Source: Escherichia phage EJP2. From it: DNA of 64,000 bases. The notes beneath the pieces were generated by a model that was given only the letters and a program-made list of their open reading frames with translations, had not been told where the DNA came from and made no database searches. Below, in pieces: positions 615 to 37,074 of this stretch (positions are counted from its first letter, which is position 1; each line of letters starts with the position of its first letter). A program made the translations under genes and the position numbers. Where the stretch lies: the sequence record OQ411014.1; one strand, given 5' to 3'.

Positions 615-643
615 TGAACATTTCAGAAAAAATGTGATATAAT
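615..643 (+). promoter_or_regulatory. sigma70-type promoter with extended -10 (TTGAAC N17 TGTGATATAAT), upstream of tRNA
   Basis: Conserved TGTGATATAATATAA block, one of 5 near-identical copies in window; followed by hairpin and tRNA. Confidence 0.5.
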
Positions 644-681
644 ATAAGTACAGGAGATGAGAGTTCTCCTGTAACAAATTA

Positions 682-754
682 GCTTGAATAGCTCAGTAGG
701 TAGAGCAGCGTACTTGTAATACGAAGGTCGTGGGTTCAATTCCTGCTTCAAGCA
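682..754 (+). tRNA. tRNA-Thr (anticodon UGU)
   Basis: Acceptor GCTTGAA/TTCAAGC, D-arm GCTC-AGTAGGTA-GAGC, anticodon loop CTTGTAA, T-loop GGTTCAATTCC; CCA not encoded. Confidence 0.75.
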
Positions 755-803
755 TTTATTCATACGATGATAATAAAAAATAAATATAGTCCTTGACAAT
801 CTT

Positions 804-833
804 ACCCAGAATTTGTATTCTGGGTTTTCTTTT
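804..833 (+). terminator. rho-independent terminator
   Basis: Inverted repeat ACCCAGAAT/ATTCTGGGT followed by T-run, immediately after tRNA. Confidence 0.5.
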
Positions 834-855
834 AACTAATCAAAAGGTAAATCCT

Positions 856-1362
856 ATGCAAATGACTTACGAAGATACAATGACTCATCTCAGTACTATT
901 GATATTGAAAAGTTCACTCTAGAAGTCACTACTGGCGACCGCAACAAGAAGATGTGGTACAGTGAATATGAAAATCAAGATGACCTGTATGTTGTGGTTT
1001 CTGATAACAGTTCTTGGGGATTGGTATCAATCACAGTATTCACACCAAATGCTGACAGGACAGTTTTGCATCGCTTCAACCGTTCTATCCATCCTAAGCA
1101 CGAACTGGACGTGATGAAGATTGAATCAATTATGTTCGACTTTGGTGGAAATCGAGATGATAAAGCGGACATTCCAGCAGTGTGCATTCAAAACCTAAGT
1201 ACACTGAAGTCCGAGTCTGATTTCTTCAGTTATATCCTAATGAACAACATCAATGATATCACACATCAGAATATCGTTGACTTCATTGAATTCACTGATA
1301 AACTGTACAGTAAATGGGTAGAACAGTTCGGTGAACCATCTCTAGGAGACGAAGATGAGTGA
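856..1362 (+). CDS. hypothetical protein (168 aa)
   Basis: ORF track 793..1362 trimmed to first ATG with AAAAGG RBS; track start overlaps terminator hairpin; C-terminal ESDFFSYIL resembles FFQ-family motif. Confidence 0.5.
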   Translation: MQMTYEDTMTHLSTIDIEKFTLEVTTGDRNKKMWYSEYENQDDLYVVVSDNSSWGLVSITVFTPNADRTVLHRFNRSIHPKHELDVMKIESIMFDFGGNRDDKADIPAVCIQNLSTLKSESDFFSYILMNNINDITHQNIVDFIEFTDKLYSKWVEQFGEPSLGDEDE

Positions 1363-1753
1363 AATTCAATCCAGATGTTATATAGTACTGAACAAAGAAC
1401 TCCAGATGCCTGTCGGTAAAGCTGCTGTACAGGTTGGTCATGCGATGGATCAGGTTTGGGGAGCTTTCTGTAATATGACTTCACAACCTACCATGTCTTT
1501 GTTGGGTAACCTGAAGTACATGGAAGACTTTTCCAAATGGAAAGATGAAGGCCGTAAGAAAGTAACACTAGGTGCTAAGAACGACGCTGAAGTTCAGAAA
1601 TATAAAGACAAACTCCTTGATGCGGGTTATACTGTGTTTGATATCGTTGACTACGGAATCAATTTCTTTGATGGTGTAACCAGGACTGGTATTGTAGTCT
1701 TTCCAGTACTGAATGCTATCCCTGAACTAAAACGTTTACAGGTATTCAAATGA
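1355..1753 (+). CDS. PTH2-like peptidyl-tRNA hydrolase domain protein (132 aa)
   Basis: Motif YIVLNKELQMPVGKAAVQVGHA resembles PTH2 core (hydrophobic strand, GK, AAQ..HA); ATGA start/stop overlap with upstream gene. Confidence 0.45.
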   Translation: MSEIQSRCYIVLNKELQMPVGKAAVQVGHAMDQVWGAFCNMTSQPTMSLLGNLKYMEDFSKWKDEGRKKVTLGAKNDAEVQKYKDKLLDAGYTVFDIVDYGINFFDGVTRTGIVVFPVLNAIPELKRLQVFK

Positions 1754-2172
1754 AAGAATTCAACCGTGCAGAAGCTATAGCAGAGGCTTATGAGAAAATA
1801 AAAAACAATGAACTACGTCTAAAGGATGTATCTCAATCGAATAAGCATCGTGAAACTGACGAATACGTATTGTATTTCAACCCATATGCTGGTATGTTCA
1901 TCTTACGAATGAACTTGGAATGTATCCTAGATACAAACCAGAATCGGACGTTATTATTTTATTCGACCGATGAACCAGATGAAGCATTAGTACCAGTACA
2001 GAACGGTATTGGTAGTATAATTGTACACCCTTATAAATCTGAAGCTGAACAGTTCCAGCGTACTTTGGTCGAAGAAGATTATCCTGACGTTGAAACTATG
2101 AAACAGATTCAATATATTGTTGAGTATATCAAAAGTACACATTTCGGAGGCGTTGATGCAGTACAAGAATAG
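1750..2172 (+). CDS. hypothetical protein (140 aa)
   Basis: ORF track; ATGA overlap coupling; C-terminal SEAEQFQRTL motif. Confidence 0.55.
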   Translation: MKEFNRAEAIAEAYEKIKNNELRLKDVSQSNKHRETDEYVLYFNPYAGMFILRMNLECILDTNQNRTLLFYSTDEPDEALVPVQNGIGSIIVHPYKSEAEQFQRTLVEEDYPDVETMKQIQYIVEYIKSTHFGGVDAVQE

Positions 2173-2521
2173 TTATGCAGTCCAACTCGGTACTATGCTG
2201 GCTTTTACTTTCCTGAACGGTTTGTTTGCGTTCTTTTCTCCTAGTACTCCAGAAGTACCAGCACAGGGTCAAGAGAAAGTACTCAAGATTGAAACCATCC
2301 GTCAGGACGTAACTTCATACACTCAAGTACTGAAAAAAGCCGATACGTGTGAAAAGGTAACTGATAAAGAAGAAAATGATTTCTATAGTTGTCCTGACAG
2401 TACTACTATTTCTATGGTACACTGGACTCGTAGCCCAGACCGTAAAGGTGTGGTAACAAAATACTATGACAAGGATAAGAACCTGTTGATGATCTATGGT
2501 CATCCAGATGATGTTTACTAA
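2156..2521 (+). CDS. hypothetical protein (121 aa)
   Basis: ORF track 2117..2521 trimmed to ATG preceded by GGAGG RBS. Confidence 0.5.
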   Translation: MQYKNSYAVQLGTMLAFTFLNGLFAFFSPSTPEVPAQGQEKVLKIETIRQDVTSYTQVLKKADTCEKVTDKEENDFYSCPDSTTISMVHWTRSPDRKGVVTKYYDKDKNLLMIYGHPDDVY

Positions 2522-2530
2522 GGATATATA

Positions 2531-2968
2531 ATGCAATCGTACTTCTCCATAATTACCGATGTACTCGCAGAATATACCAAACCAGAACAGTGGACACCAA
2601 TCAAATCAGACGTAGGAGAACGCTACCGTTCAGTACTGGATGGTAGTGTCCTGTCCGTATCTAAAGCATTGATTGGTTTCATTTACAATGGAGACAAAGC
2701 ACCAGTCCAGGAATTGACTGTGAACATTTTTGCTAACTCGAAGTATTTTGTATTTGTAGACCGAAATACCAACAAGGTAAGAATAAAGACCAGTGTAGGC
2801 AGTACTGGTATTATGACGAGTAAGGTACTTTCTACTTTAGTTCCAGAAGATGAGTATTTTCATTTGATGTTATCATCTGATGAGTATCAGATATCCTATG
2901 AAGAGCAGAAAATATTGCTCAAGTTCATAGAACTCGCAAAGTGGGTACACAGGAAAAATAATCGTTGA
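2531..2968 (+). CDS. hypothetical protein (145 aa)
   Basis: ORF track; TAAGGA RBS. Confidence 0.55.
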   Translation: MQSYFSIITDVLAEYTKPEQWTPIKSDVGERYRSVLDGSVLSVSKALIGFIYNGDKAPVQELTVNIFANSKYFVFVDRNTNKVRIKTSVGSTGIMTSKVLSTLVPEDEYFHLMLSSDEYQISYEEQKILLKFIELAKWVHRKNNR

Positions 2969-2993
2969 CAGTACTGCTAGGTGTGCGTATAAT
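2965..2993 (+). promoter_or_regulatory. sigma70-type promoter TTGACA N17 TATAAT
   Basis: Canonical hexamers; CAGTACTG abuts the -35 box. Confidence 0.55.
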
Positions 2994-3033
2994 CACTTCA
3001 TAACGAAATGACTTAAACACTAAGGATAACAAA

Positions 3034-3291
3034 ATGGCTAACGTAATTCGCTCTCGAAAAATGATTTCTGGTAATGACCTTCGCTATCTGAACAACTATC
3101 GTCATCTTTTCCAACAGTTGGGTAAAGGTGTAAAAATGACAGTTATTACTGATACCATTCAGGAACCAGAAGACATTTTTGGTGTATACCATAGCGTTTT
3201 CAATCTATACATCAAACGTGGTCTGTTGGACGTAAAAACCATTACTGAAATTGATGACGATGAAGAGATGGAGAATTTCCTGTTCCTATGA
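3034..3291 (+). CDS. hypothetical protein (85 aa)
   Basis: ORF track; AAGGA RBS. Confidence 0.55.
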   Translation: MANVIRSRKMISGNDLRYLNNYRHLFQQLGKGVKMTVITDTIQEPEDIFGVYHSVFNLYIKRGLLDVKTITEIDDDEEMENFLFL

Positions 3292-3434
3292 ATAATGAAT
3301 ACTACAATGCTTGGTCGTACGCGATTGAGTTTTGTCGAAAGTACGACATATGCACGAGTACTAAAAAATGGAAACCGTGGGAGAAGAAATTCTTCTTCTA
3401 CATTTATAACCTAAAATTAGGACGTGAGGTGTAA
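3288..3434 (+). CDS. small hypothetical protein (48 aa)
   Basis: Uninterrupted frame ATG..TAA found by hand; ATGA overlap with upstream stop; below ORF-track size cutoff. Confidence 0.35.
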   Translation: MNNEYYNAWSYAIEFCRKYDICTSTKKWKPWEKKFFFYIYNLKLGREV

Positions 3435-3457
3435 CATGCCAGAACCATTAGATCGTG

Positions 3458-3973
3458 ATGATGATTTCATGGATGAACGCTATGGTGATAAGGATGAGTA
3501 GATTCCTTACACTAGCTGATGTAATCAAGGAGGCTAATGATTATCTTGACAGTAAACCAGTGTTCAATGATAATGCAAAGGATACAAGAACATCTTTCGT
3601 CCCGAATTTGATTAACACTGCGTACGCTAATATTATTGACGTATTCGTGTGTCCACGCTATGCTATTTTCAAATTCCGTGATGTTGAGAATCTCGTGGAG
3701 TATCAACTATCAGTTCTTCCGTGGCGTAGTGGATTTTCGTTTATGTCATGGGATGATAGTTATATTGATGACGGTGAAGACATGCGGCATCTTTCAATGG
3801 GGTTTATTACATCAGAAGAACAGTTCTTCCAAGAATCGTTGAAACGTGATTTGTCATGGGTAGAATTGGTTGACGTTATCAATGCCAAGAAACTTCATGA
3901 CCGCATCTTTGAGTACTATGGTATTACACCATGTGATGATGAGCAGGACCAACTAGGTGACGTATACAAATGA
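3458..3973 (+). CDS. FFQ-motif family protein (start uncertain)
   Basis: ORF track 3455..3973; first ATG used; C-terminal TSEEQFFQESL motif. Confidence 0.5.
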   Translation: MMISWMNAMVIRMSRFLTLADVIKEANDYLDSKPVFNDNAKDTRTSFVPNLINTAYANIIDVFVCPRYAIFKFRDVENLVEYQLSVLPWRSGFSFMSWDDSYIDDGEDMRHLSMGFITSEEQFFQESLKRDLSWVELVDVINAKKLHDRIFEYYGITPCDDEQDQLGDVYK

Positions 3974-4488
3974 AAGTAGAACCGTTCAGTACTGAATTTA
4001 TGCTGGTGGACGTATCACTCTCCAATTTCAAGCGTACTATGCGAAATTCTGGAGTGCACTATTATCGTTTTAAGAATAAACGATTAGTGCATGATACGAT
4101 TCATAACACTGTAAAACTTGTATGTGAATATCAGATTGATGAAGATACTCACACAAACCAAGTTCTGCACTTCAATTACAAAACTAACGAGTTGACTGCA
4201 CTCTTTACTGTAGTTCACAATAAAGTCAAGGAAAAATTCGTAGGTAAATATAAGTTCACGCTAGACGAATGTGAGTACTTCTTACTAAGTTTATCTGCGG
4301 AGAAATATTTTCCTAGTCTACAAGATTTAGTTCAAATCAATTCAGTAGTTCAAGAATTGAAAGAAGATGTGAAGTCTTGGGATGAAGAGATGACCGCTGC
4401 CGCATATAAGCGTCGTGTTGAGAGTTTTCATAAATGGGAAATGAAAACAGGTCGGAAGTTATTTCATTATAATAGTAAGGCAAAATAA
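3970..4488 (+). CDS. hypothetical protein (172 aa)
   Basis: ORF track; ATGA overlap coupling. Confidence 0.55.
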   Translation: MKVEPFSTEFMLVDVSLSNFKRTMRNSGVHYYRFKNKRLVHDTIHNTVKLVCEYQIDEDTHTNQVLHFNYKTNELTALFTVVHNKVKEKFVGKYKFTLDECEYFLLSLSAEKYFPSLQDLVQINSVVQELKEDVKSWDEEMTAAAYKRRVESFHKWEMKTGRKLFHYNSKAK

Positions 4489-4742
4489 TGAGTGAATATT
4501 CAAACGTATTGAAAGCAATCATTGCTGATTTGGGCGAAGATTGTGCTAATGTTTCCGAAGAAGAATACCAGTTGTGGAAGATGAACTATGAAAGTCTCCC
4601 AGAGCATGATAAAGTATTCAATCTTCTAGGTGCAATGTCACAGTACTTGACTTGTGCATCTAAAGCTAGTGCAAGTATCTTAGCTACTGCGGTAGTTTGC
4701 ACAGAACGTTGGTGTAACGAAAAAGATTTGGAGAATTTCTAA
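4488..4742 (+). CDS. hypothetical protein (84 aa)
   Basis: ORF track; start overlaps upstream stop. Confidence 0.5.
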   Translation: MSEYSNVLKAIIADLGEDCANVSEEEYQLWKMNYESLPEHDKVFNLLGAMSQYLTCASKASASILATAVVCTERWCNEKDLENF

Positions 4743-4760
4743 TATATAAAAGGATTTTAT

Positions 4761-5618
4761 ATGCAACCAATAACAGTACTTAGTCTGTTCAATGGAATGT
4801 CAGGCGGGATGCTTGCTTTAAACGAAGCACAAATACCCGTACATAAGTACTATTCATCTGAGATAGATAAGTTCGCAAACGCTGAGTCCCAAGCGAATTT
4901 CCCTGATATAGTCCAGTTGGGTGATGTTACCAAGTGGAAGGAATGGGATATTGAATGGGACAAAATAGATCTACTCATGGGTGGATTTCCATGCCAGGCA
5001 TGGTCTGTGGCTGGTAAACAGGGTGGAACGAACGATCCACGTGGAATGCTATTCCATACTATGGTTGATATCTATCATCATATTAAGGCGTTGAATCCGA
5101 ACTTGAAAGTACTGTTCGAGAACGTCAAGATGAAAGAAGACTTCAAGCAATACATTGATGGTATCTTAGGAATGACACCTAAGATGATCAACTCTCAAAA
5201 CTACACTGCTCACTATCGCCAGCGATATTACTGGTACTCATCTGATAAGTACTTTATCCCGCCTCCTATCATGTCTTCCCCTTCACTGCAATCAATTCTT
5301 GATAGTGATTACACTGATAGAGAGAAATCGTACTGTATAGATGCGAACTATTGGAAGGGTGGAGATCCTAACCAGTACTTCAACAAGTCCAGGCGGCAGA
5401 TGGTGTTCATGGACCCTGATATTGATAGAGAGTACCTTATTGAAAAGGGTATAAACAAGATTGACTATCGTAAGCTAAGTGTAGTAGAATGTTGTCGTTG
5501 TCAGGGAGTGCCGGATGATTACTTTAAAGTGTCCAGCAATACCCAAGCGTACAAGATGTTAGGTAACGGGTGGACTATCCCAGTCATCGCTCACTTATTA
5601 CGTGATATATTCTTTTGA
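4761..5618 (+). CDS. DNA (cytosine-5)-methyltransferase
   Basis: C5-MTase motifs in order: I LFNGMSGG, IV GFPCQAWS, VI ENV, C-terminal GNGWTIPV; RBS AAAGGA. Confidence 0.8.
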   Translation: MQPITVLSLFNGMSGGMLALNEAQIPVHKYYSSEIDKFANAESQANFPDIVQLGDVTKWKEWDIEWDKIDLLMGGFPCQAWSVAGKQGGTNDPRGMLFHTMVDIYHHIKALNPNLKVLFENVKMKEDFKQYIDGILGMTPKMINSQNYTAHYRQRYYWYSSDKYFIPPPIMSSPSLQSILDSDYTDREKSYCIDANYWKGGDPNQYFNKSRRQMVFMDPDIDREYLIEKGINKIDYRKLSVVECCRCQGVPDDYFKVSSNTQAYKMLGNGWTIPVIAHLLRDIFF

Positions 5619-5648
5619 TATAATACTATGACTTACAAAGGAGAGCAT

Positions 5649-6218
5649 ATGAACTTTATCAAGTTCAATACATCTGAGTCAGAAGCATACTTTGATACAA
5701 ATAATAAATTCAATATTATTCTAAAAGACGGAACAGTTATTATCGGAGTATCATTACTATCATTTGATGGTGAAAACCGCAAAACTGTTTATAAATTCAC
5801 CAATCTTGATGGTGATTACTGGGATACATCAGATGTATCTAAAATTTGCACACATTATGTATTTGAATCAATTGAAGTTGGTGATGGATGGGCGTTGACT
5901 TGTAATGGTAATAAAGTATTTTCTGGTAACATATTTGGGGTAATCACCGAAAAGGAAATAGTAGACCATCATCTTCATGTCCTCAATGATACTGCTAACA
6001 CTTATACACCTGATAATATCAACCTTCGCGATATTGTAACATATACTGATTGTAATGGTTTCAGTCATAAAGCAATCGTAACTGAAGTCAAAAAACCAAG
6101 AAATTATTTCGACCACGGTGTAATTGAAGTATATATGGTAGATGTTGATAAACAATACTTTGAACATTTCACTTATACTGGTTGGGATAAATTCCTAACC
6201 GTTATTGAAGAATATTAG
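5649..6218 (+). CDS. hypothetical protein (189 aa)
   Basis: ORF track 5628..6218 trimmed to ATG with AAGGAG RBS. Confidence 0.55.
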   Translation: MNFIKFNTSESEAYFDTNNKFNIILKDGTVIIGVSLLSFDGENRKTVYKFTNLDGDYWDTSDVSKICTHYVFESIEVGDGWALTCNGNKVFSGNIFGVITEKEIVDHHLHVLNDTANTYTPDNINLRDIVTYTDCNGFSHKAIVTEVKKPRNYFDHGVIEVYMVDVDKQYFEHFTYTGWDKFLTVIEEY

Positions 6219-6272
6219 GATTACTCGTGTTCTTGATACATTTTTTACTAATTCAATGAGGTTTTTTATAGT

Positions 6273-8126: not shown

Positions 8127-8405
8127 ATGCATTTCGAAAAATTCAACGCAAACCGTAACACACGTATTGAAATGTTGTTTGAAACTCAAGATACTATCAG
8201 TATTTGTACTAAGAGTGGTGATGTTTACCATGAATGTACTATTGAGTGGGAACAAGGCCGAACACGTTCTGTTGAGTTTGACAACTACCATTTCAAACAA
8301 GGCGACCGCAAGATCTGGCCTGAACTGGTAGAAAGCATTGCATATGAAGATGAAGATAAAGAATCTTTTATCAAAGAAAATCCAGAAAATGATGAAGATT
8401 TTTGA
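8127..8405 (+). CDS. hypothetical protein (92 aa)
   Basis: ORF track; TAGGA RBS. Confidence 0.5.
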   Translation: MHFEKFNANRNTRIEMLFETQDTISICTKSGDVYHECTIEWEQGRTRSVEFDNYHFKQGDRKIWPELVESIAYEDEDKESFIKENPENDEDF

Positions 8406-8431
8406 GCATTTTGAAGAAAATGTGATATAAT
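8402..8431 (+). promoter_or_regulatory. extended -10 promoter (TTGAGC N18 TGTGATATAAT) upstream of tRNA pair
   Basis: Second copy of TGTGATATAATATAA block. Confidence 0.5.
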
Positions 8432-8485
8432 ATAATTAAGAAAGGGACAACATGATGTTCTTTTCTTGTTAATAAATAGAATACA

Positions 8486-8576
<91 letters not shown>

Positions 8577-9286: not shown

Positions 9287-9720
9287 TCAATTATGAAGCA
9301 GTACTGAAATCATTTATACACTGGTTGAACGACGATATCGTATACAAAACCATTGTGCGTACTAGAAATGATGAATACATTCCTATTCAGTATTTGGATA
9401 AGAATGAAGATATCTTCTTAGATAATGAAAACCTACATTACAGTTATCAACACTGGGAATTGAACACAACTACCCAAGCTGAAAGCCTGACTTCGTACTT
9501 TGGTATTGATATAAATCGTGATGGTTCTATTGTTATATTATATAATCCATCAGGAAGTGTACGTGATAAAACTCCACCTGCACGATTTAATATTAGTACT
9601 ACAGAAGAGGAATTATTCCAACTTAGTACTATCCAAGAGGATTATGACGTAACGATGGAAGTACTGAAAGAGTTTGCTAAACTGCACGAGAAATATTTTG
9701 GGAACCTAGACGATGTGTAA
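9283..9720 (+). CDS. FFQ-motif family protein
   Basis: ORF track; C-terminal TTEEELFQLST. Confidence 0.55.
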   Translation: MINYEAVLKSFIHWLNDDIVYKTIVRTRNDEYIPIQYLDKNEDIFLDNENLHYSYQHWELNTTTQAESLTSYFGIDINRDGSIVILYNPSGSVRDKTPPARFNISTTEEELFQLSTIQEDYDVTMEVLKEFAKLHEKYFGNLDDV

Positions 9721-10573: not shown

Positions 10574-11092
10574 ATGAAAGAGCTTATTGAACGTGTAGAT
10601 TTCTTTGAACTGATTGCATTGGAATTTGATCCAGAATGTACTGATATTCTTTCAGATGTACCAATCTTCCCTATTGAAAACGATGATGGTACTTCATCGT
10701 ACTTAGAAGATTACGAAGATTATTTGCGTAGCTTCTGTCCAACATCAAACGATAAAGTGCATCTCTTTACTGAAATTATTCATGTACAATACAATACAAA
10801 TAATAAAGAAATTGTATTATGTGCAATGGATACATTCAACAGTACTGAAGCTGGTATTGCACGTGAGTATGCTAAACTATATCTCATTGATACAGGTGAG
10901 TATTGTAAACTTACCATCAAGGAAAATTCATTTATATTCAATAACAAAGAATATAAGCTAGGTACTACTGAAGAAGAGAACTTCCAGATTTCATGTACTG
11001 ACATGGGTTACTTCAATAATGTAGTAAATGAAGTAAAGAAATTTATTCTTCAAGATATTGACAAGAATGGATTACCTGAGTATAATAAATAA
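10574..11092 (+). CDS. FFQ-motif family protein
   Basis: ORF track 10460..11092 trimmed to ATG after TAAGGT RBS (track start overlaps upstream gene by >100 nt); motif TTEEENFQISC. Confidence 0.5.
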   Translation: MKELIERVDFFELIALEFDPECTDILSDVPIFPIENDDGTSSYLEDYEDYLRSFCPTSNDKVHLFTEIIHVQYNTNNKEIVLCAMDTFNSTEAGIAREYAKLYLIDTGEYCKLTIKENSFIFNNKEYKLGTTEEENFQISCTDMGYFNNVVNEVKKFILQDIDKNGLPEYNK

Positions 11093-11101: not shown

Positions 11102-11191
11102 AGAAGGTTGGCAGAGCGGCTAAATGCACTCGCCTACTAAGCGAGCACTCGCTCCGGCGAGTCGAGGGTTCGAATCCCCCACCTTCTGCCA
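11102..11191 (+). tRNA. type II tRNA with unusual anticodon loop (apparent anticodon ACU; identity uncertain)
   Basis: Acceptor AGAAGGT/ACCTTCT, T-loop GGTTCGAATCC, long variable arm, encoded CCA; anticodon stem CTCGC/GCGAG with loop CTACTAA. Confidence 0.6.
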
Positions 11192-12028: not shown

Positions 12029-12238
12029 ATGAAAGCACGAGAACTTGCTAAAATTCTGATGGATAATCCCGAAGCTGAAGTTGTTTTGAATGATAATGAA
12101 TCAAATTATCAATTTTCACATATTGCCTGTACTGAAACTTTTTATAAAGATTCGTATGCTGAATCTTGGCAAAACGATGATAACAAAACTATTTCAGAAA
12201 ATGAAAAATTCAAAGTTGATGTAATAGTTTTGTACTGA
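12029..12238 (+). CDS. small protein, MKxxELxxIL N-terminal family
   Basis: ORF track; N-terminus MKARELAKILMDNPEAEVV shared with 13494, 14536 and 16293 genes. Confidence 0.5.
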   Translation: MKARELAKILMDNPEAEVVLNDNESNYQFSHIACTETFYKDSYAESWQNDDNKTISENEKFKVDVIVLY

Positions 12239-12445
12239 TATAATGAATTCCACAATCAGACGTATATGGTGTAAGTTACGTCGATGTAATCCAGAACAAG
12301 ATCTCTGGTACTCTAGGAAGTGGTGAATGTTAACCTAGACGGGTTTGATAATTGGACGATAGGCAATTATTACTTGACTAGCAGGTTTAAACTAGAGGTG
12401 ACAGTCCTTCACCAAACTGGAAAACCGGATGGACTTTTTAATTTA

Positions 12446-12540
<95 letters not shown>

Positions 12541-18700: not shown

Positions 18701-18728
18701 TTGACAACGCATTCAGTACTGATATAAT
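18701..18728 (+). promoter_or_regulatory. sigma70-type promoter TTGACA N16 TATAAT with TCAGTACTGA in spacer
   Basis: Spacer and -10 context TTCAGTACTGATATAAT is identical to the promoter at 38714. Confidence 0.55.
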
Positions 18729-20910: not shown

Positions 20911-20939
20911 TGAGACAAACTGGAAAATTGTGATATAAT
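20911..20939 (+). promoter_or_regulatory. extended -10 promoter (TGAGAC N~17 TGTGATATAAT)
   Basis: Third copy of TGTGATATAATATAA block; followed by ~95 nt leader with hairpin. Confidence 0.45.
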
Positions 20940-21036
20940 ATAATTATCCAAACATCGTCGGATGTAAAACGAAAAACTCACAGCGTTCAATCATTTGAAC
21001 GCAATTCTATAGAAAAGTAATAAAAGGATTTATAAA

Positions 21037-21258
21037 ATGGCTAACGAACTAAACCAAACCGCAGTAATCGCTGACATTTCCGATGTAGAACGTACCATGA
21101 ACTACATTCAATTCCAACTAAGTCAAGCAGATGCTGAATTGGCTACCTTTGCTGGTACAGATGCTAAGAAAATCTGTTATGTTCACCTACTTGCTTGGAA
21201 GCAAGAGCTACAAACTGAACTACATGAACTACGCAAAGCTCTAAAGCGTAAAGCATAA
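21037..21258 (+). CDS. hypothetical protein (73 aa)
   Basis: ORF track; AAAGGA RBS; host-like codon usage. Confidence 0.5.
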   Translation: MANELNQTAVIADISDVERTMNYIQFQLSQADAELATFAGTDAKKICYVHLLAWKQELQTELHELRKALKRKA

Positions 21259-23834: not shown

Positions 23835-24170
23835 ATGATGTTAGAACTACTAGAAACAATCCTGTACGCAGCTAGAGCAGAACGATATGATAAACTCGAT
23901 GCACTAGCACCTAAAGTGTTTTATGGTCGAGAAGGTGATGCGATATTGTCCTTTACTATCATGACAGAAGAAAACTTTTCTATCATGATTAGGGCAACAC
24001 ACGTCATTGACTGTCGTTGTAAAAACTGGTCTGACGCAACATTGAAGTACGGTTACAAGGAAGATGAATTCTTCTTAGAATCACTCAAGCGTGAAATACA
24101 TTTTTCCTATGAAGAATATCTACTTGCACAAAAAATTTCAGAAGTTCTAAAAAGACTCGCATATAAATGA
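23835..24170 (+). CDS. FFQ-like family protein
   Basis: ORF track; motif YKEDEFFLESL. Confidence 0.55.
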   Translation: MMLELLETILYAARAERYDKLDALAPKVFYGREGDAILSFTIMTEENFSIMIRATHVIDCRCKNWSDATLKYGYKEDEFFLESLKREIHFSYEEYLLAQKISEVLKRLAYK

Positions 24171-24196
24171 GAAATTTAGGATAAATGTGATATAAT
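24168..24196 (+). promoter_or_regulatory. extended -10 promoter (TGAGAA N17 TGTGATATAAT)
   Basis: Fourth copy of TGTGATATAATATAA block; followed by ~140 nt leader with two hairpins. Confidence 0.45.
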
Positions 24197-24338
24197 ATAA
24201 TTATTAGGGACATTCGTCCCAACCGCCCTCACTGAAGCATGGTCAGACTCAGTGAGCACACTACGGGTGCTCTGACTGGTAAATGGAGGCTACCATAGAT
24301 GTAGCCTCCAATTTATCCTTAAACAAAAGGAGAGCAAA

Positions 24339-24785
24339 ATGAAATTCAACAAAATTCAGTTAGTGTTTGAAAACTGTGAAACTTTAGTTATTAATGCATC
24401 TGATATTGTTACATTGAAGACTTCACCAGCCCAAACTTCTTATCACAAGAACTACGGTAACAGTATCATTGAAGAACATGAAATCAAACACATCTTCCTG
24501 GCAGTGAAGAATGGCACTAAGGCTGATCCTGATTCTGTGTCATGGGACGATGACAGTACTGTGCGATTCCGTAATGACGTTACGAACATTACCTTCATTA
24601 GTGATAATGAAAGTAAAAACTACGTAGTTCGTTGGGAAGAGAGTAATACTAATAATTACTCATCTGCGTATCAGCGTTGCACAACCACTCTAGATGGTCA
24701 TCAAGTCTGGATCAACTCATCTGATGTTATTATGGATTTGCAAATTTCTGACGTTGATGAGTTAGCATCGTTTATGAATATCTAA
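24339..24785 (+). CDS. hypothetical protein (148 aa)
   Basis: ORF track; AAGGAG RBS. Confidence 0.55.
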   Translation: MKFNKIQLVFENCETLVINASDIVTLKTSPAQTSYHKNYGNSIIEEHEIKHIFLAVKNGTKADPDSVSWDDDSTVRFRNDVTNITFISDNESKNYVVRWEESNTNNYSSAYQRCTTTLDGHQVWINSSDVIMDLQISDVDELASFMNI

Positions 24786-27786: not shown

Positions 27787-28929
27787 TTAATCTTTTCCAG
27801 CAATTACGATAGAACCAGCAAACCCATCGAGGGCTGTTAGTACTATATCATCTGCGTCATTAACCTGAACCTGAACAGTACAAACTGATGTACCATCATA
27901 TACAGTATATGACATATTGGATTTACCATGTTGTGCTTTGGTAATAGAAGCACTTGAGGAACCATCACCATTTGGTGTCCATGATAGAGCAGAACGGAAT
28001 GGAACACTTTGAGATGTTTTACCAATAATAACAACAACAGCGGCAGACGCAGCACTTTGTGTAACAGTAATGTTACCACTTGCATCTACGTCTACAGTAC
28101 TGAATTGTACTGCGTCATCTTGAGGTTCATGTAACTGAACAACCAGGTCCGCACCACGTCCGTGAATGATAGCAGGAACAGTAGCTTTGTACTGACCATC
28201 TGATTGTATTGCAAAATCAGCAGGAGCAATGTTGATTGAAGTTACATAGTCAGAATCAGCACCATCTGCATATACAGGGAATTGTACTTGAATTTCATTG
28301 TAATTCGGTGAAGTAATTGTTATAGTAGCTGTACCAGTTTGGGAGATAACCACTGGAGAAATACTGAATGTTCCATCTGGATTAACAGTACCTTCATATT
28401 CAGAACCATCTGGTAGAACAATTTTAACAACCATATCAGTAACGTCTAGAGCACCCGAACTAGAGGTGATAGCACCACTAATTTCAGTATCATTAACGTG
28501 AACTGGATTGATTACGATGTTGTCAATATCTGGTAGAGGGATAGTACATGTAGGTGTGTACATATCATAAAGCGTTTTACCAGTACTGAGAATTATTTTG
28601 TTCAATAGGAAACGAATGACGAAACCTTCCTTGGTCTTTTGATCATTGTAACCCCTTACAAAGAAGGTATTGCGTGGAATCTTAGCCAAGATTTGATCGT
28701 TATTTTCTAGATAATCCAGAACTCTACCCTCGGTGTCATAACCAGTGAGTAGTACTTTTTGATAAATTGTGTTTGTCGCAGGATCAATAAGGTCGAACAT
28801 TACATCAGAACGTTGTTTGTATATACGTAACATCTTTTTCTTTGTAAAGTCTCGCAGATATGCCCCATCAACTACAAATCCACAAACCCCATAAGGATAA
28901 TCCCCAACCCCAGCTATCGGTTTAGCCAT
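27787..28929 (-). CDS. Ig-like domain protein (possible virion decoration or adhesin)
   Basis: ORF track 27787..29025 trimmed to ATG (MAKPIAG) preceded by AAGGAG RBS; S/T/V/G-rich beta-sandwich-like repeats. Confidence 0.55.
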   Translation of the reverse strand: MAKPIAGVGDYPYGVCGFVVDGAYLRDFTKKKMLRIYKQRSDVMFDLIDPATNTIYQKVLLTGYDTEGRVLDYLENNDQILAKIPRNTFFVRGYNDQKTKEGFVIRFLLNKIILSTGKTLYDMYTPTCTIPLPDIDNIVINPVHVNDTEISGAITSSSGALDVTDMVVKIVLPDGSEYEGTVNPDGTFSISPVVISQTGTATITITSPNYNEIQVQFPVYADGADSDYVTSINIAPADFAIQSDGQYKATVPAIIHGRGADLVVQLHEPQDDAVQFSTVDVDASGNITVTQSAASAAVVVIIGKTSQSVPFRSALSWTPNGDGSSSASITKAQHGKSNMSYTVYDGTSVCTVQVQVNDADDIVLTALDGFAGSIVIAGKD

Positions 28930-32199: not shown

Positions 32200-32224
32200 C
32201 ACGTACCTGAAGAGTAGCTATAAT
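32196..32224 (+). promoter_or_regulatory. sigma70-type promoter TTGACA N17 TATAAT
   Basis: Canonical hexamers upstream of 32260 gene. Confidence 0.55.
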
Positions 32225-32259
32225 ACTTTCATTGAAGCGAAACTAACAAAGGAAACATA

Positions 32260-32514: not shown

Positions 32515-32993
32515 TGAAAAACGTACAACAATACATTCAGAACTTCACCGCATATCCAGTATCAGTAATGTTCGGACATATCGATACACCTACTCCTAAG
32601 CAGAAGAAAGCGGAGAAACGTGTAGCAGAAATCTGTGAAGAACTGTATCGTTTTGATTGTACAGTACTATCAGATGTGCGAGCAGCATTCCGCGAGTTAG
32701 ATGTTCTTATCTCCTTGAGTGATGATAAGTTCCGCATCAAGCAAGTGCGTCTAACTCGTATGACTGGTCGTTTGGCATATTTTGTTGACAAAGCGGTTGT
32801 AATGCTCGATAATATGCACAAGAAAGACCAGCAACTTCAGCAGTACTGGCAACCGCTGTCAATGAAAGCTAAAGTACTGAAGGATGAAATCAAATCATTC
32901 CTTATCCAGTACGATACTTCAGTTGATAAGATTGTATTACTGTCTGAATTTGACAATGCATACAAAGAAGCCCAAGAGGAAGATAAGAAATGA
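32514..32993 (+). CDS. hypothetical protein (159 aa)
   Basis: ORF track. Confidence 0.55.
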   Translation: MKNVQQYIQNFTAYPVSVMFGHIDTPTPKQKKAEKRVAEICEELYRFDCTVLSDVRAAFRELDVLISLSDDKFRIKQVRLTRMTGRLAYFVDKAVVMLDNMHKKDQQLQQYWQPLSMKAKVLKDEIKSFLIQYDTSVDKIVLLSEFDNAYKEAQEEDKK

Positions 32994-33490
32994 CAACTGT
33001 TTTCGTGAGTAAAGAATTAGGAATTGCTATTACTGACTCACGAGCCACGTTTCAAGAGTCCAGGAAGTTTCTTGGGCTTTTTAACTTGACTCCATTACCA
33101 TCGTATAAAGTTGTGAATCAAAAGGCTTTGTATGTTCATGACCGTTTATTCTTAGCATGTGGAAGTGTAGATACTATTGATAAAGTATTGCAATATTTCA
33201 TCGACGGTACTAAGTTCAAGATAAACAAGAAAACTCCAAGCTGTGAGTGTCTTCTTCTTGGTAAAGAATACGGTGTACACTTGTACGTGTGGAATGGTAA
33301 GATTCATAAGAAGACTATCTTCTTGGCGTATAATTTTGTACACTTCATGGGGTCTGGTAGTTCTGCCCTACTCAGAAAGTACTACAAGACTTTAGAACGT
33401 AATACACCAGATGAAGTTATTGATATTTTCAAGACTGTACATTTGGATGATAGCTTCACTGACGATAACGTAAATTTATACAGAATCTAG
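32990..33490 (+). CDS. hypothetical protein (166 aa)
   Basis: ORF track. Confidence 0.55.
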   Translation: MTTVFVSKELGIAITDSRATFQESRKFLGLFNLTPLPSYKVVNQKALYVHDRLFLACGSVDTIDKVLQYFIDGTKFKINKKTPSCECLLLGKEYGVHLYVWNGKIHKKTIFLAYNFVHFMGSGSSALLRKYYKTLERNTPDEVIDIFKTVHLDDSFTDDNVNLYRI

Positions 33491-33519
33491 TTGACAGTCT
33501 AAAAGAGATATCATATAAT
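33491..33519 (+). promoter_or_regulatory. sigma70-type promoter TTGACA N17 TATAAT
   Basis: Canonical hexamers upstream of small ORF and sigma gene. Confidence 0.55.
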
Positions 33520-33549
33520 CATTGCATACCACAACGAGAGAGAAACAAA

Positions 33550-33696
33550 ATGAGTACATTCATCGTAGAATATGTTCTGACTGGTCAAAGCATCTGGCAG
33601 GTACAAATGGTAAAAGCATGTAATAAAGAGCAAGCCCAGAGCACGCTCAAGAAAATGATTTCTGGTGTAGTAACCACCAAAGCATACCCAGCATAA
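33550..33696 (+). CDS. small hypothetical protein (48 aa) upstream of sigma factor
   Basis: Uninterrupted frame found by hand; followed by terminator hairpin AATCCGC-TCTGT-GCGGATT plus T-run. Confidence 0.4.
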   Translation: MSTFIVEYVLTGQSIWQVQMVKACNKEQAQSTLKKMISGVVTTKAYPA

Positions 33697-33758
33697 TTTA
33701 GAGCTATAATGAATCCGCTCTGTGCGGATTCTTTTTTTTAATATCAAAGGAGAAAGTA

Positions 33759-34751
33759 ATGACTGTAAAACAACTCAATCTAGAATCTATTCAAGACGAT
33801 ATCATGGATGAATGTTTTGTAAATGAAAACAATACGTTCGAGCGTATTAGTGAACAGTCACATGACAGTACTGAAGAAGTAGAAGAAAGTACTGATGACG
33901 TAGGTTCTTTCAAGACTTACAACACATCTAGCGTTTTACCAGAAGGTGAGACGAATGAATCTATTATTCGTTTAATCCGTGACGGTATCAATGTGAAGCG
34001 TAACATTGACCTTATCGTACGTAACAACGTAGGCTTAGTATATAGCCAAGCACGTCAGTGTACTTGTAATATCCCATTCCAAGATAAAGCACAGTACGCT
34101 TTTGAAGGTCTAATGCGTGCAATCCATCGTTATGATGTGAATCAGAATATTCTTTTCAGTACTTACGCTACTGTGTCTATTCGCCAAACACTCTATAACT
34201 TTGGTAATGATGAAGTTCGTCTAATCAGTATTCCACGTCACTTGTCAGTGGATAACATCAAGATTCAGAACTACATTGAGAAGCATCGTTCTAAGTTCGG
34301 TCGTACCCCAAGTGAAGATGAAATCAGTACTGCTACTGGCATCAAGTTATCCGCAGTGAAACGTGTAGTGCAGTACATGAACAGTAAGCCAATGAGTTTC
34401 GATACTCCAATGGGTTCTGACAGTACTGAAAACGATATGAGCTTAGTGGATGTAATCCCAGGAACTTCCAATGATTACACACTAAGTGCAGATACAGTTC
34501 AGAAAGCACCACTAGATGTAATTGCATTGGTCATGTCTGAACTACCAGAAGAAGAGCAGTTGCTGATCAATAAGATTCACGGCTTGAATGGACATGAAGA
34601 AAGTACTTTTATTGCTCTAGAGACTGCTGGATTGGTAGATGCGAAGGGTAAGAAGCTAACTAACCGTTGCACTATTCATCGTCGTTACAATGCAATACTG
34701 GATAAGATTCGTAATATTCTAAAAGCACGTGACATTTCATTCGATGACTGA
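33759..34751 (+). CDS. RNA polymerase sigma factor, sigma70 family
   Basis: Region 2 match VGLVYSQARQ..FEGLMRAIHRYD..FSTYATVSIRQT and C-terminal region-4-like helix-turn-helix; AAGGAG RBS. Confidence 0.7.
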   Translation: MTVKQLNLESIQDDIMDECFVNENNTFERISEQSHDSTEEVEESTDDVGSFKTYNTSSVLPEGETNESIIRLIRDGINVKRNIDLIVRNNVGLVYSQARQCTCNIPFQDKAQYAFEGLMRAIHRYDVNQNILFSTYATVSIRQTLYNFGNDEVRLISIPRHLSVDNIKIQNYIEKHRSKFGRTPSEDEISTATGIKLSAVKRVVQYMNSKPMSFDTPMGSDSTENDMSLVDVIPGTSNDYTLSADTVQKAPLDVIALVMSELPEEEQLLINKIHGLNGHEESTFIALETAGLVDAKGKKLTNRCTIHRRYNAILDKIRNILKARDISFDD

Positions 34752-34911
34752 TATGATTCGTTACAAGGCAAACAAAGTACAAGGAACTGCTGTTGTAGTT
34801 TTCTTGTACTGGACTGAGAATCCGGTCTATGTTCTGGCAGAGAACAGTACTGTATCGCTGTCGGAGTTCATTGATATAGCAATTGAAGAATTCAAATCAT
34901 TAGAGGAATAA
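34744..34911 (+). CDS. small hypothetical protein (start uncertain)
   Basis: ORF track 34729..34911 (GTG); internal ATG chosen; weak RBS. Confidence 0.35.
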   Translation: MTDMIRYKANKVQGTAVVVFLYWTENPVYVLAENSTVSLSEFIDIAIEEFKSLEE

Positions 34912-34915
34912 TACT

Positions 34916-35287
34916 ATGTTGCACAAAGTTGAAGGTTCAAAGCACAATTGGATTGACGAATACGATATCTATGTTGGGTATGATACTTCCCCGTGTTGTT
35001 GTGAATATGCGGATTACTTCTTGAGTTATGAGATTGAGAGGAATGGAGTACCAGACGAAGAACTAATTGATAAAAGTACTTTCAAATGGGAAGAATACGA
35101 CTTCTATCCATTCGCATCTGCACTGATCGAAAACGTCCCAGGACTTGATGAAGGTGCTATTGCGATGTTCCCAATGATCCACAAAACGACTTCCCGTATG
35201 GTGTACTTGCACTTGTTTAACGCTCACAATGGTTATTACAGCCACGGGTTCGAAAGCAATACATTCATTGGTAACGGTTCTTTATAA
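34916..35287 (+). CDS. hypothetical protein (123 aa)
   Basis: ORF track; AGAGGA RBS. Confidence 0.55.
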   Translation: MLHKVEGSKHNWIDEYDIYVGYDTSPCCCEYADYFLSYEIERNGVPDEELIDKSTFKWEEYDFYPFASALIENVPGLDEGAIAMFPMIHKTTSRMVYLHLFNAHNGYYSHGFESNTFIGNGSL

Positions 35288-35296
35288 GGAATTTTT

Positions 35297-35470
35297 GTGA
35301 AAACTAAAAACTCAAAATCTTTAGGTACATATGTGAATGGTAATCGCTATGCGAAAATCAGTACATGTATTGATTGCAGTACTGGAAATACTTTATACTA
35401 TTACTGTATTCCTGGTGAGCGGGTGTATATCAGTTCAGAAGAATTCAAGAATGAATGGGTAAAAAACTAA
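35297..35470 (+). CDS. small Cys-containing protein (57 aa, GTG start)
   Basis: Uninterrupted frame found by hand; TAAGGAA RBS. Confidence 0.35.
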   Translation: MKTKNSKSLGTYVNGNRYAKISTCIDCSTGNTLYYYCIPGERVYISSEEFKNEWVKN

Positions 35471-35476
35471 AACAAA

Positions 35477-35512
35477 ATGCTTGACTTCGGTCGAGCATTC
35501 TTTTAATATAAT
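35477..35512 (+). promoter_or_regulatory. terminator-promoter module (hairpin containing -35 TTGACT, T-run, -10)
   Basis: ATGCTTGAC-TTCG-GTCGAGCAT hairpin then TTTT then TAATAT. Confidence 0.5.
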
Positions 35513-35549
35513 TGCATCAACTACACTACTACACTTGAGGATAACAATC

Positions 35550-35990
35550 ATGGCTTGGATTCACAGCAATCATTCTGAACTGAACAATTTCGATATCTTT
35601 GCATTCGTGAACATGCAAGAGAAGATCTTCATCAAAGGACGTCTCTGCACGCTCTCTGACGGCTCACGGGCCATCTGTAACATGAACAACAAGGGTGAAG
35701 TACTGGATATCGTTGCTCTTCCTGCGTGGGCTACTGTGCAGCCTGAAGAGGCACTTATGCGTCTACTCTTTGAAGAGATTGGTAAACTTCCAGGTACTGA
35801 TGTGGAGAACAAACTCTTCAACATCAAACACTCCAAGTACAGTGCTGACCAATTATCTGGTTTAACTGATACAGTACTGAAAGAAGTTGTAAGTAATCAA
35901 TGTAACGTAATTCTTAAGTACGTTCCTGAACTGGAACTGACTGAAGAAATGCTAGTGGAATTTGACATCAACGCTAAGGGTTCTCTATGA
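35550..35990 (+). CDS. hypothetical protein (146 aa)
   Basis: ORF track 35481..35990 trimmed (track start is the TTG of the promoter -35); ATG after GAGGA RBS. Confidence 0.55.
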   Translation: MAWIHSNHSELNNFDIFAFVNMQEKIFIKGRLCTLSDGSRAICNMNNKGEVLDIVALPAWATVQPEEALMRLLFEEIGKLPGTDVENKLFNIKHSKYSADQLSGLTDTVLKEVVSNQCNVILKYVPELELTEEMLVEFDINAKGSL

Positions 35991-36349
35991 GACTAATCCT
36001 GTTACTGATTTTGTTAGTAACTGCACAGACGATACCATCTGATTCATATATCGATATAAATCCAGCACGTGAGTTCATTATTTGTACAGACAGAGTAGAC
36101 AGTACTAAAAAGATTGAAGTCCTCTTCGATTCAAGTACTCCAGAATATGTAGTGACGAACAAAGTACAGTACAAATTCATTTCTCACGAAGTTATTGGGG
36201 ATGTAGATGTACTTCAATATAAGTTCGGTTCAAAGACTATGAATTTTGAATTTATTATGCAAGGTGATAAAGTATCTTCTATTCGATTGGAAGTACTTGG
36301 TGCTATCCCTGGTATGGAATTCATGGATGGGGAGTGTAAACTGCTATGA
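35987..36349 (+). CDS. secreted protein (signal peptide)
   Basis: ORF track; N-terminus MRLILLLILLVTAQT. Confidence 0.5.
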   Translation: MRLILLLILLVTAQTIPSDSYIDINPAREFIICTDRVDSTKKIEVLFDSSTPEYVVTNKVQYKFISHEVIGDVDVLQYKFGSKTMNFEFIMQGDKVSSIRLEVLGAIPGMEFMDGECKLL

Positions 36350-36690
36350 TTTCAGTACTGAATAGTATTAGTATTGTTGTTATGATTTTAGCCTGTACCT
36401 ACGCTATCCTAGCTGGGGTGCTCATCTTCTACAAGAAGACTAAGTTCTTGGGGTGGTTACAGATAAGTAAAACTGGCTATTGTTTTGTGTACGGAATAAG
36501 TGCCTTTTGTATATACAGGGATTTATTTTTAGGAGTACTTCCTCCTGATTTCAATGGGTACAACTTTAGTGCAGTGTTCTTATTGTTTTATATTGTACTT
36601 ATTGTGCTTGGTCTTTGTATACCGTATGTACTTATAGTTGGTGTTTCAAAGGTACTTGAGTACCGTAAACGTATTCCTGATGAGGATTGA
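36346..36690 (+). CDS. multi-pass membrane protein (114 aa)
   Basis: ORF track. Confidence 0.5.
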   Translation: MISVLNSISIVVMILACTYAILAGVLIFYKKTKFLGWLQISKTGYCFVYGISAFCIYRDLFLGVLPPDFNGYNFSAVFLLFYIVLIVLGLCIPYVLIVGVSKVLEYRKRIPDED

Positions 36691-36693
36691 TAA

Positions 36694-37023
36694 ATGAAGA
36701 TGGAAGACTTAGTAGAACTATTACAGCCGTACGCTACAGTACTATTTTTGATTGCTTCAATGTATACTGTTGTAACTCTAGTACTTGGATTCTTCAAGTA
36801 TCGAACACTAGCTAAACGCTTAGACGAGAACTTATGGCTCTCTGTTCCTAGTATCTTTAGTGTAGCTATTAGTATTGCAAACTATTTTATTGAAGATCGT
36901 ATGTTCGCTGCTATTATGTTATTATTTGTTTTGGTTGGGGTAACATTTGTAGGTACTATCTATGCAATGTGTAAAGGATTTGTGTACGTTCGTTCCAAGA
37001 TACCAGATCCAGAACAAGAATAA
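36694..37023 (+). CDS. multi-pass membrane protein (109 aa)
   Basis: ORF track; ends KIPDPEQE like previous gene (RIPDED). Confidence 0.5.
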   Translation: MKMEDLVELLQPYATVLFLIASMYTVVTLVLGFFKYRTLAKRLDENLWLSVPSIFSVAISIANYFIEDRMFAAIMLLFVLVGVTFVGTIYAMCKGFVYVRSKIPDPEQE

Positions 37024-37029
37024 TTCTAA

Positions 37030-37058
37030 TTAATGCTCACTTCGGTGAGCATTTTTTT
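37030..37058 (+). terminator. rho-independent terminator
   Basis: GCTCAC-TTCG-GTGAGC hairpin followed by TTTTTTTT. Confidence 0.6.
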
Positions 37059-37074
37059 TATTTTGTGATATAAT
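37045..37074 (+). promoter_or_regulatory. extended -10 promoter (GTGAGC N~16 TGTGATATAAT)
   Basis: Fifth copy of the TGTGATATAAT block; drives a ~580 nt ORF-free region. Confidence 0.45.

Follow-up and report, generated by a model that had tools for sequence, protein, structure and literature searches.

Predicted extended −10 promoters of a class shared by RaK2-like jumbo phages precede tRNA genes, protein genes and a large structured RNA in Escherichia phage EJP2

Results

The window and its five promoter sites

The DNA analyzed here (the window) is a stretch of 64,000 nucleotides (nt) of Escherichia phage EJP2 (OQ411014.1), to which all window statistics below are limited. It carries five near-identical putative promoters, which precede two tRNA genes, two protein genes with long leaders and one structured non-coding RNA. 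The window has about 37% G+C (63% A+T) and six tRNA genes, and its open reading frames (ORFs) are nearly all short and nearly all on the + strand. DNA and protein searches placed it among the RaK2-like jumbo myophages (121Q/PBECO4, Munch/7t3, CBB, GAP32, BF and RaK2). The phage collection contained no close relative; the nearest was Erwinia phage Hallingskeid (60% amino acid identity in the sigma factor), and the matches found by megablast were only patchy ones of 92% to 121Q-like phages. The short ORFs, the canonical promoters and the sigma factor gene of the window match the region proposed as early in the CBB paper (PMC5259590), and the window is probably the early/tRNA region of a RaK2-like jumbo phage.

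Scanning of the window located the 15-nt block TGTGATATAATATAA in exact form at 633, 8421, 20929 and 24186, all on the + strand, versus a mean of 0.005 exact copies in 200 Markov shuffles. The fifth site (37064) reads TGTGATATAATTAAG, and its first 11 bases are the same (12 of 15 overall). When up to two mismatches were allowed, 0.9 matches to TGTGATATAATATAA were expected, and the sole further match of this kind lies at 9531 within an ORF and has no TATAAT. All five sites are intergenic, on the gene strand and oriented toward the downstream feature. At each of them the block forms a full extended −10 element, TGTGn plus TATAAT followed by A/T-rich bases, in which the TG occupies −15/−14, one base 5′ of the −10 hexamer (TGATATAAT). 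TGTGn is the fuller form of the extended −10 element. A hexamer beginning with TGA stands exactly 17 nt 5′ of TATAAT in every case (TGAACA, TGAGCA, TGAGAC, TGAGAA and TGAGCA), which bears out the preliminary description of five near-identical blocks with a weak −35 resembling TGAGA/C or TTGAAC about 17 nt upstream. Read one base earlier, with an 18-nt spacer, the same hexamers become TTGAAC, TTGAGC, ATGAGA, ATGAGA and GTGAGC.

The five sites fit one layout exactly, namely a 7-nt box, a 13-nt spacer, TGn and TATAAT (7+13+3+6). Promoter 1 (615–647, +) consists of the box TGAACAT (615–621), an A/T-rich 13-nt spacer, TG at 635–636, TATAAT at 638–643 and ATAA at 644–647. Promoter 2 (8403–8435, +) has TGAGCAT at 8403–8409, TG at 8423–8424 and TATAAT at 8426–8431. 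Promoter 3 (20911–20943, +) carries the box that fits the class box best, TGAGACA (20911–20917), with TATAAT at 20934–20939. Promoter 4 (24168–24200, +) has TGAGAAA at 24168–24174 and TATAAT at 24191–24196, and promoter 5 (37046–37078, +) has TGAGCAT at 37046–37052 and TATAAT at 37069–37074, its box sitting in the descending arm of an upstream terminator hairpin (37032–37053). Transcription would start at the A seven bases after TATAAT, that is, at predicted +1 positions 650, 8438, 20946, 24203 and 37081, respectively. Compared with TG[AG][AG]A[CT]N, the box form found in the related phages (see below), TGAGACA fits fully, TGAGAAA at five of the six specified positions, and TGAACAT and both TGAGCAT boxes at four of six; the last three fit better when shifted one base upstream (TTGAACA, TTGAGCA and GTGAGCA).

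A position matrix trained on 37 sites, all from other phages, was used to score 128,000 positions of the window. The five sites took ranks 1–5, with scores of 26.2 (promoter 3), 16.1 (promoter 4), 12.2 (promoter 1), 9.3 (promoter 2) and 8.1 (promoter 5). The maxima obtained with shuffled sequences averaged 7.8 and the highest was 16.8; only the score of promoter 3 lies above all of them, that of promoter 4 being just under the highest.

Sequences downstream of the five promoters

According to folding, stable hairpins start at or a few bases from the predicted +1 at four of the five sites, and the transcripts would begin with such a 5′ hairpin. All targets are on the + strand. Promoter 1 is followed (650–754) by a hairpin at 650–672 that starts from the predicted +1 (−12 kcal/mol, z-score −3.9), and then by tRNA-Thr(tgt) at 682–754, identified by ARAGORN and Rfam. 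The arrangement behind promoter 2 (8438–8576) is alike, with a hairpin at 8438–8467 (−12.1 kcal/mol, z-score −4.0) and tRNA-Ser(tga) at 8487–8576. Promoter 3 (target 20946–21258) precedes a 91-nt leader with hairpins and a 73-amino acid (aa) ORF (21037–21258, phrog_15704). The leader (20946–21036) has 68–71% nt identity to sequences in Munch (L122, 31820–31904) and Hallingskeid (L123, 28452–28545, −) and may be a regulatory element of the 5′ untranslated region; ATCGnCGGATGTAAAACG and the following hairpin are kept in Munch. Promoter 4 (target 24203–24785) is followed by a structured 136-nt leader and a 148-aa ORF (24339–24785, phrog_2349). This leader (24203–24338) has a minimum free energy of −49.2 kcal/mol (z-score −4.6), a 5′ hairpin at 24207–24220 and a strong, terminator-like hairpin with a weak T-tail (24284–24310) just 5′ of the ribosome-binding site of ORF 24339. 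It might act as an attenuator or represent a small RNA of its own. Comparison with the Munch and Hallingskeid stretches revealed no similar leader there, apart from the promoter block. Promoter 5 opens an ORF-free stretch (37081–37654), which includes an RNA of about 475 nt described below. The earlier statement that four of the sites precede tRNAs or ORF-free structured regions is thus roughly right, the four being made up of two tRNAs, a long non-coding RNA and a long structured leader.

The same class in related phages

The layout has been predicted before in a related phage. The CBB paper (PMC5259590, Table S6) lists 18 predicted ‘divergent RpoD-like’ promoters of the form TGAAACG/TGGAACG-N13-TGn-TATAAT and states the same motif for Cronobacter phage GAP32. 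This CBB class is a motif prediction. The 18 CBB sites share the layout of the window sites (7-nt box, 13 nt, TGn, TATAAT), and CBB, like the window phage, is a RaK2-like jumbo phage with a gene for a sigma-70-family sigma factor and has canonical RpoD-like promoters beside the class; CBB also has T4-like late ATAAATA motifs beside both promoter classes. The window differs in its boxes (TGAGACA, TGAGAAA, TGAACAT and TGAGCAT versus TGAAACG/TGGAACG) and in its longer −10 block with the invariant TGTGATATAATATAA. Since the CBB search was limited to 100 bp upstream of ORFs, the promoters before the two CBB copies of the large RNA that we examined are missing from the CBB list. The motif had already been predicted for CBB and GAP32, and the five window sites are further members; new here are how widely the class occurs in the clade, its association with tRNA genes, the family of large RNAs that it precedes and the promoter–RNA cassette shared with bacterial islands.

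The box TG[AG][AG]A[CT]N followed by 13 nt, TGn and TATAAT recurs in Hallingskeid, Munch, 121Q, CBB, BF, GAP32 and uncultured jumbo contigs, beside canonical promoters. Munch has ten sites (CTTGGGACAAA-N10-TGTGATATAAT) within 50 kb examined; their spacer is one base longer, all of them lie on the gene strand, and seven canonical promoters are found beside them. Six of the ten have RNA genes as targets. A 50-kb stretch of Hallingskeid contains three sites (TGGGAT[AG]-N13-TGATATAAT). Four of the five window sites are at positions matching class promoters in relatives, and their flanks are not conserved. The counterpart of 633 is a Munch class promoter before tRNA-Thr, with the same order of hairpin and tRNA. 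That of 8421 is found 8 nt before tRNA-Ser in both Hallingskeid (TGGGATA-N13-TGATATAAT) and Munch. The orthologue of the 73-aa ORF behind 20929 has class promoters in Munch (L122, 31789–31819) and Hallingskeid (L123, TG at 28554, −), and a promoter of the same layout occupies the place of 37064 in every full-length homologous RNA copy. No counterpart of 24186 was found in the Munch and Hallingskeid stretches compared. The recurrence of the layout beside canonical promoters and the four conserved positions uphold the earlier claim that the class is distinct from the TTGACA/TTGACT promoters. In Munch and Hallingskeid, the mature 5′ ends of three tRNAs (tRNA-Ser and tRNA-Arg) lie 8–9 nt after TATAAT, which fits a start about 7 nt downstream of the hexamer.

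The −10 block alone is not diagnostic of the RaK2-like group. In exact scans of IMG/VR, the 15-mer and the 18-mer TGTGATATAATATAATTA each occurred in at least 120 viral-contig stretches, and among the matches listed, nearly all of these contigs were far smaller than RaK2-like jumbo genomes and most were unrelated. One of them, IMGVR_UViG_3300012662_000153 (L050; 12 kb, 36% G+C), has three exact 15-mers at 5514, 11306 and 11622, each after CCTCTTGACAA, so that the −10 block here goes with a canonical −35 element; the contig is far too small for a complete jumbo genome. The abundance of both words in unrelated contigs and the 63% A+T of the window could be taken to mean that the five blocks are non-functional and either arose by chance in A/T-rich sequence or were left over from a duplicated cassette. 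We regard this as scarcely credible, given the four exact copies, the consistently intergenic position on the coding strand, the positions matching those in relatives, and the fixed distances to tRNA 5′ ends and to the conserved start of the large RNA. Moreover, the flanks of the five sites differ, which excludes a recent duplication.

Other promoters of the window

Perfect TTGACA-N16–18-TATAAT promoters occur 12 times on the + strand of the window and not at all on the − strand (0.12 expected), and a TG extension is present in 2 of the 12. The spacers of the class sites contain 75–100% A+T versus 50–83% in the canonical promoters; the discriminators and start regions of the class have 67–92% A+T (ATAATT, ATAAGT, TAAGCT), and the spacer is 17–18 nt. 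In a third promoter type TTGACT lies within a terminator hairpin, GGTTGACTTCGGTC[AG]GCC. This terminator-like hairpin with its T-run, which carries the TTGACT −35, is present in nine copies on the + strand (39672, 44043, 47094, 53238, 53973, 54804, 56200, 56643 and 56937; span 39672–56954), and eight of the nine are followed at promoter spacing by a −10-like hexamer (TATAAT, TATTAT or TATAAA). The element appears to be a combined terminator–promoter module and is also found among the CBB terminators (PMC5259590). The class, canonical and TTGACT-hairpin sites thus represent two or three sequence populations in the window.

Three other tRNA genes of the window (Arg 8690, Ser 11102 and Ser 12451) lie behind TTGACA-type promoters. 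The tRNA-Ser at 11102–11191 (+) was called with an unusual anticodon, ACT, and scores lowest among the six tRNAs in Rfam (47.9 bits); it begins about 9 nt past the predicted start of a perfect canonical promoter (11058–11086). About 200 nt without a long ORF (12245–12450, +) separate an extended −10 promoter (TTGATG-N17-TATAAT, 12216–12244) from tRNA-Ser(gct). Comparable gaps of 185–200 nt separate class promoters from tRNA-Ser or tRNA-Leu in Munch, and a further small RNA or a long leader may be located in such gaps.

The RNA behind promoter 5

The stretch 37081–37555 (+) contains no credible ORF and has homologues in about 70 jumbo-phage records from nine host genera. Their nt identity of 66–86% is striking when compared with the 36–60% protein identity of the sigma factor. 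Each jumbo genome matches at several separate places, which always fall in gaps that lack credible ORFs, and in the window BLAST and nhmmer found no further copy. In several phage records, short ‘hypothetical proteins’ are annotated over the RNA. Alignment of 19 copies gave a consensus of 80 base pairs in 16 helices, among them a long-range closing helix that pairs 37144–37146 with 37541–37543 in the window copy. In the alignment, 96.3% of the cells were paired, versus 78.3% after shuffling (none of 500 shuffles reached the observed value) and 36–45% when the partners were slid. Compensatory double changes were seen at 50 of the 80 pairs (269 cells versus 27–55 when slid), and invariant G–U pairs settle the strand. 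The element of about 475 nt is therefore a structured RNA with strong covariation.

No match to this RNA was found in Rfam 15, in which only the tRNAs of the window reach the gathering score; at E ≤ 5, the region 37040–37680 gave two matches, both on the opposite strand and far below gathering. Our literature search did not find a paper describing it. In PA5oct, a related jumbo phage, ORF-free regions are transcribed, which is an analogy only for the window RNA. A resemblance in block order, noted by eye, to the RNA-seq-defined PA5oct ncRNA001, ncRNA002 and ncRNA004 was rejected, as nhmmer gave nothing below E = 0.1 and the covariance model R1 with filters off scored at most 4.8 bits. The RNA is reminiscent of ROOL and GOLLD, both of which are Rfam families, in its length (about 475–570 nt here), its many helices, its phage or prophage-like carriers, its proximity to tRNA genes and in that the function is not known. 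Unlike them, it has no Rfam match, occurs in several copies per jumbo genome and has its own conserved promoter.

A promoter of the class layout precedes all 32 full-length copies examined (7 of 7 from isolates, 16 of 16 from IMG/VR and 9 of 9 from Enterobacterales assemblies). In relatives, the conserved RNA start lies 5–44 nt after TATAAT.

Copies of the RNA in bacterial islands

The RNA was also found in assemblies of Serratia, Citrobacter, Silvania, Buttiauxella and Enterobacter, an unclassified Enterobacteriaceae isolate and two metagenome bins, as well as in 2 of 5,426 complete E. coli genomes. These loci (L406, 3520–4118; L422, 3671–4149, −; L401, L365, L410, L412, L434, L430 and L384; L447, 7001–7583) belong to integrated elements of Enterobacterales. 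Six of nine have the RNA directly downstream of an integrase gene of the large serine or tyrosine type, and five of nine have a CI-like repressor gene nearby; the searches found no copy on plasmids or in isolated temperate phages. The promoters of the nine bacterial copies read TGAAAC[AG] or TGAAATG, N13, TGC, TCC or TGG, and then TATACT or TATAAT, and in five of the nine the TG is lost yet the box is kept. The E. coli RefSeq record has no annotated feature at the place of the RNA, and no sigma gene is annotated within 7 kb of this copy, the one of the nine whose surroundings were checked for such genes. In E. coli LR-29-1, the RNA lies in an island adjoining ffs, and a candidate defence system (PDC-M45) is 3 kb away in the same island. 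The ORF just upstream of the E. coli copy has a weak defence match (PDC-M01B, E = 3e-7), and neither the downstream neighbours in the E. coli island nor three ORFs tested in the other bacterial loci gave defence matches.

These loci allow a bolder reading, which we consider quite unlikely, namely that the TGRRAY-box promoter and the RNA form a mobile cassette of lytic RaK2-like jumbo phages, with several copies per genome, and of Enterobacterales islands or prophages. A phage factor, most simply the phage sigma, would read the box, the island copies would stay silent until such a phage infects, and the RNA would be a player in phage–island conflict. If this were true, the RNA would be an island defence or satellite effector, or a phage decoy or counter-measure, and it would represent a new class of large functional RNA with a dedicated promoter type.

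Further features of the window

Two parts of the window are unusually close to 121Q-like coliphages, ORF 5628–6218 (about 92% DNA identity over 5616–6217) and the tRNA-Ser stretch 8482–8576 (about 97%). The genes around them have no nucleotide similarity, a pattern that suggests either that the two parts were exchanged recently or that they are unusually strongly conserved. The minority strand encodes two RCC1-repeat (beta-propeller) proteins (48861–50039, −, and 62571–63701, −), in surroundings that are almost wholly +. The palindrome CAGTACTG occurs 84 times in the window versus about one expected (AGTACT, 240 versus 23; GTAC, 659 versus 236), an excess that is striking for a phage palindrome. 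It overlaps canonical promoters as TTGACAGTACTG at 2965, 29050 and 50086 and as CAGTACTGATATAAT at 18701 and 38723, and it is also present inside the large RNA.

Discussion

Probably, the five sites are genuine promoters of a class common to all RaK2-like jumbo phages examined; we infer their starts, sigma factor, timing and strength from sequence. As to which polymerase reads them, host sigma-70 is favoured, a single point on which we put the chances at about even. RNA polymerase with host sigma-70 would recognize the sites chiefly through the perfect extended −10, and the upstream box, which may act as a weak −35 (nTGAnn) at 18-nt spacing, would add to or tune the binding. In the complete layout, an A/T-rich upstream region is followed by the box TG[AG][AG]A[CT]N at the place of the −35, by 13 A/T-rich spacer bases, and by TGn, TATAAT and a discriminator that is again A/T-rich. 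The class resembles the extended −10 promoters of E. coli sigma-70 (TGnTATAAT) in the TG one base before a consensus −10 and in the weak −35, whereas a conserved non-TTGACA box at −35 is absent from ordinary promoters of that type. Three of the window boxes resemble TTGA-type −35 elements at 18-nt spacing, which counts for host sigma-70. The window sites combine a degenerate box with a perfect extended −10, and five of the nine bacterial copies have lost the TG and kept the box; this pattern is expected of one holoenzyme that reads both elements additively. The integrated elements presumably rely on the host polymerase.

Several observations weigh against this interpretation. Just one of the five window boxes (TGAGACA) matches the clade consensus fully, and the matrix scores of three sites (12.2, 9.3 and 8.1) are inside the range of the shuffle maxima. 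The promoters before the RNA copies may be alike through common descent of a promoter–RNA cassette and not through shared function. The literature search found no transcriptome or start-site study of these phage genera. Across genera, the box is conserved as TGRRAY, not as TTGACA, and it is kept even in bacterial copies without the TG, which points to recognition by something other than ordinary sigma-70 region 4. In CBB, 11 of the 18 class members lie before ORFs of the DNA-synthesis region and the canonical promoters mainly in the early region (PMC5259590), a placement that looks like a temporal switch. Finally, the sigma-70-family sigma factor gene of the window (33759–34751, +; Pfam Sigma70_r2 and r3), a candidate alternative reader, lies behind a perfect canonical promoter (TTGACA-N17-TATAAT, 33491–33519), and its product is divergent opposite region 4.2.

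The points on the box, on the placement in CBB and on the sigma gene would also fit a regulon of the phage sigma factor with delayed-early or middle timing, in which sigma-70 transcribes the sigma gene from its canonical promoter and the phage sigma reads TGRRAY-N17-TATAAT before tRNAs, the large RNA and, in other parts of the genome, replication genes. The phage protein aligns to regions 2–4 of Thermus aquaticus SigA (chain 1l9u_H), and its divergent stretch has VDAKGKK opposite SigA VTRERIR, which we take to be the region 4.2 helix that reads the −35 element. It keeps the Tyr, Gln and His of the FSTYAT, IRQ and IP.H motifs (regions 2.4–3.0), residues that presumably contribute to −10 and TG recognition. 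Retention of the box in bacterial copies despite the loss of TG would suit islands that fire on infection. We nevertheless hold such a regulon to be rather unlikely, because the same layout is present in integrated elements and prophages, with no phage-type sigma annotated within 7 kb of the E. coli copy, because the −10 part is a perfect sigma-70 extended −10 that sigma-70 should be able to use unaided, and because three of the five window boxes match the clade box poorly. In addition, the phage sigma has Val–Ser where Thermus SigA has a Trp–Trp pair, so that an identical reading of TATAAT is not assured.

The class shares several features with the middle promoters of T4, a distantly related myophage. 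These have a substitute element for the −35 and keep a sigma-70-type −10, often TG-extended, and their targets include tRNA genes, small stable RNAs and replication genes. By analogy, sigma-70 might read the −10 while a phage or host protein binds the TGRRAY box, or a phage anti-sigma might disable −35-dependent promoters (cf. T4 MotA/AsiA and gp39 of Thermus phage P23-45). The conserved box at about −35 to −29 beside a sigma-70-type −10, the parallel in targets and the nearly universal extended −10 of the class agree with this, and extended −10 promoters resist AsiA- or gp39-type inhibition. However, the class box is not the MotA box, (a/t)(a/t)(a/t)TGCTTtA near −30, and lies 16 nt from the hexamer compared with about 12 in T4; the RaK2-like phages, unlike the T4 middle system, encode a full sigma-70-family sigma factor. 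A Pfam search of the 10 ORFs around the sigma gene, which make up only a small part of the genome, gave no MotA- or AsiA-like match. We judge this arrangement very unlikely. The box was also compared with a CRP half-site (TGTGA), a Cra operator (TGAAACGTTT in some copies) and sigma-32, sigma-E and sigma-S consensus elements, and none fits the whole class. The only sigma-S-like trait is TATACT with C at −13 in bacterial copies, which resembles the −10 preferred by sigma-S.

Returning to transcription by the host holoenzyme, the class may be compared with the host rrn P1 and tRNA promoters, which likewise drive tRNAs, have A/T-rich upstream sequences and are presumably strong. It differs from them in the discriminator, which is A/T-rich (ATAATT) and not G+C-rich, in the spacer of 17–18 and not 16 nt, and in the presence of TG. 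By this comparison, regulation of the stringent-control type would not be expected, as an A/T-rich discriminator, the opposite of the G+C-rich host one, should let the output escape stringent shutdown. This suggests a way for the phage to sustain tRNA synthesis while the stable-RNA promoters of the host are shut down.

The proposal that the class is dedicated to stable RNAs held in part. RNA genes are enriched among the targets (three of five here, six of ten in the Munch stretch, and all full-length copies of the large RNA examined), but the association is not exclusive, since two window sites drive protein genes and three window tRNAs use TTGACA-type promoters. Together with the CBB members at DNA-synthesis genes, this describes a class that is enriched at RNA genes, not dedicated to them. 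RaK2-like jumbo phages carry as many as about 35 tRNA genes together with hundreds of uncharacterized early genes, and for these phages the class provides a testable promoter definition with a precise layout and predicted starts. It also poses the question of whether a phage sigma or host sigma-70 acts on TGRRAY-N17-TATAAT sites. Furthermore, it anchors a new RNA family that annotation pipelines have missed, and this RNA links the lytic jumbo phages to integrated elements of Serratia, Citrobacter, Enterobacter and E. coli.

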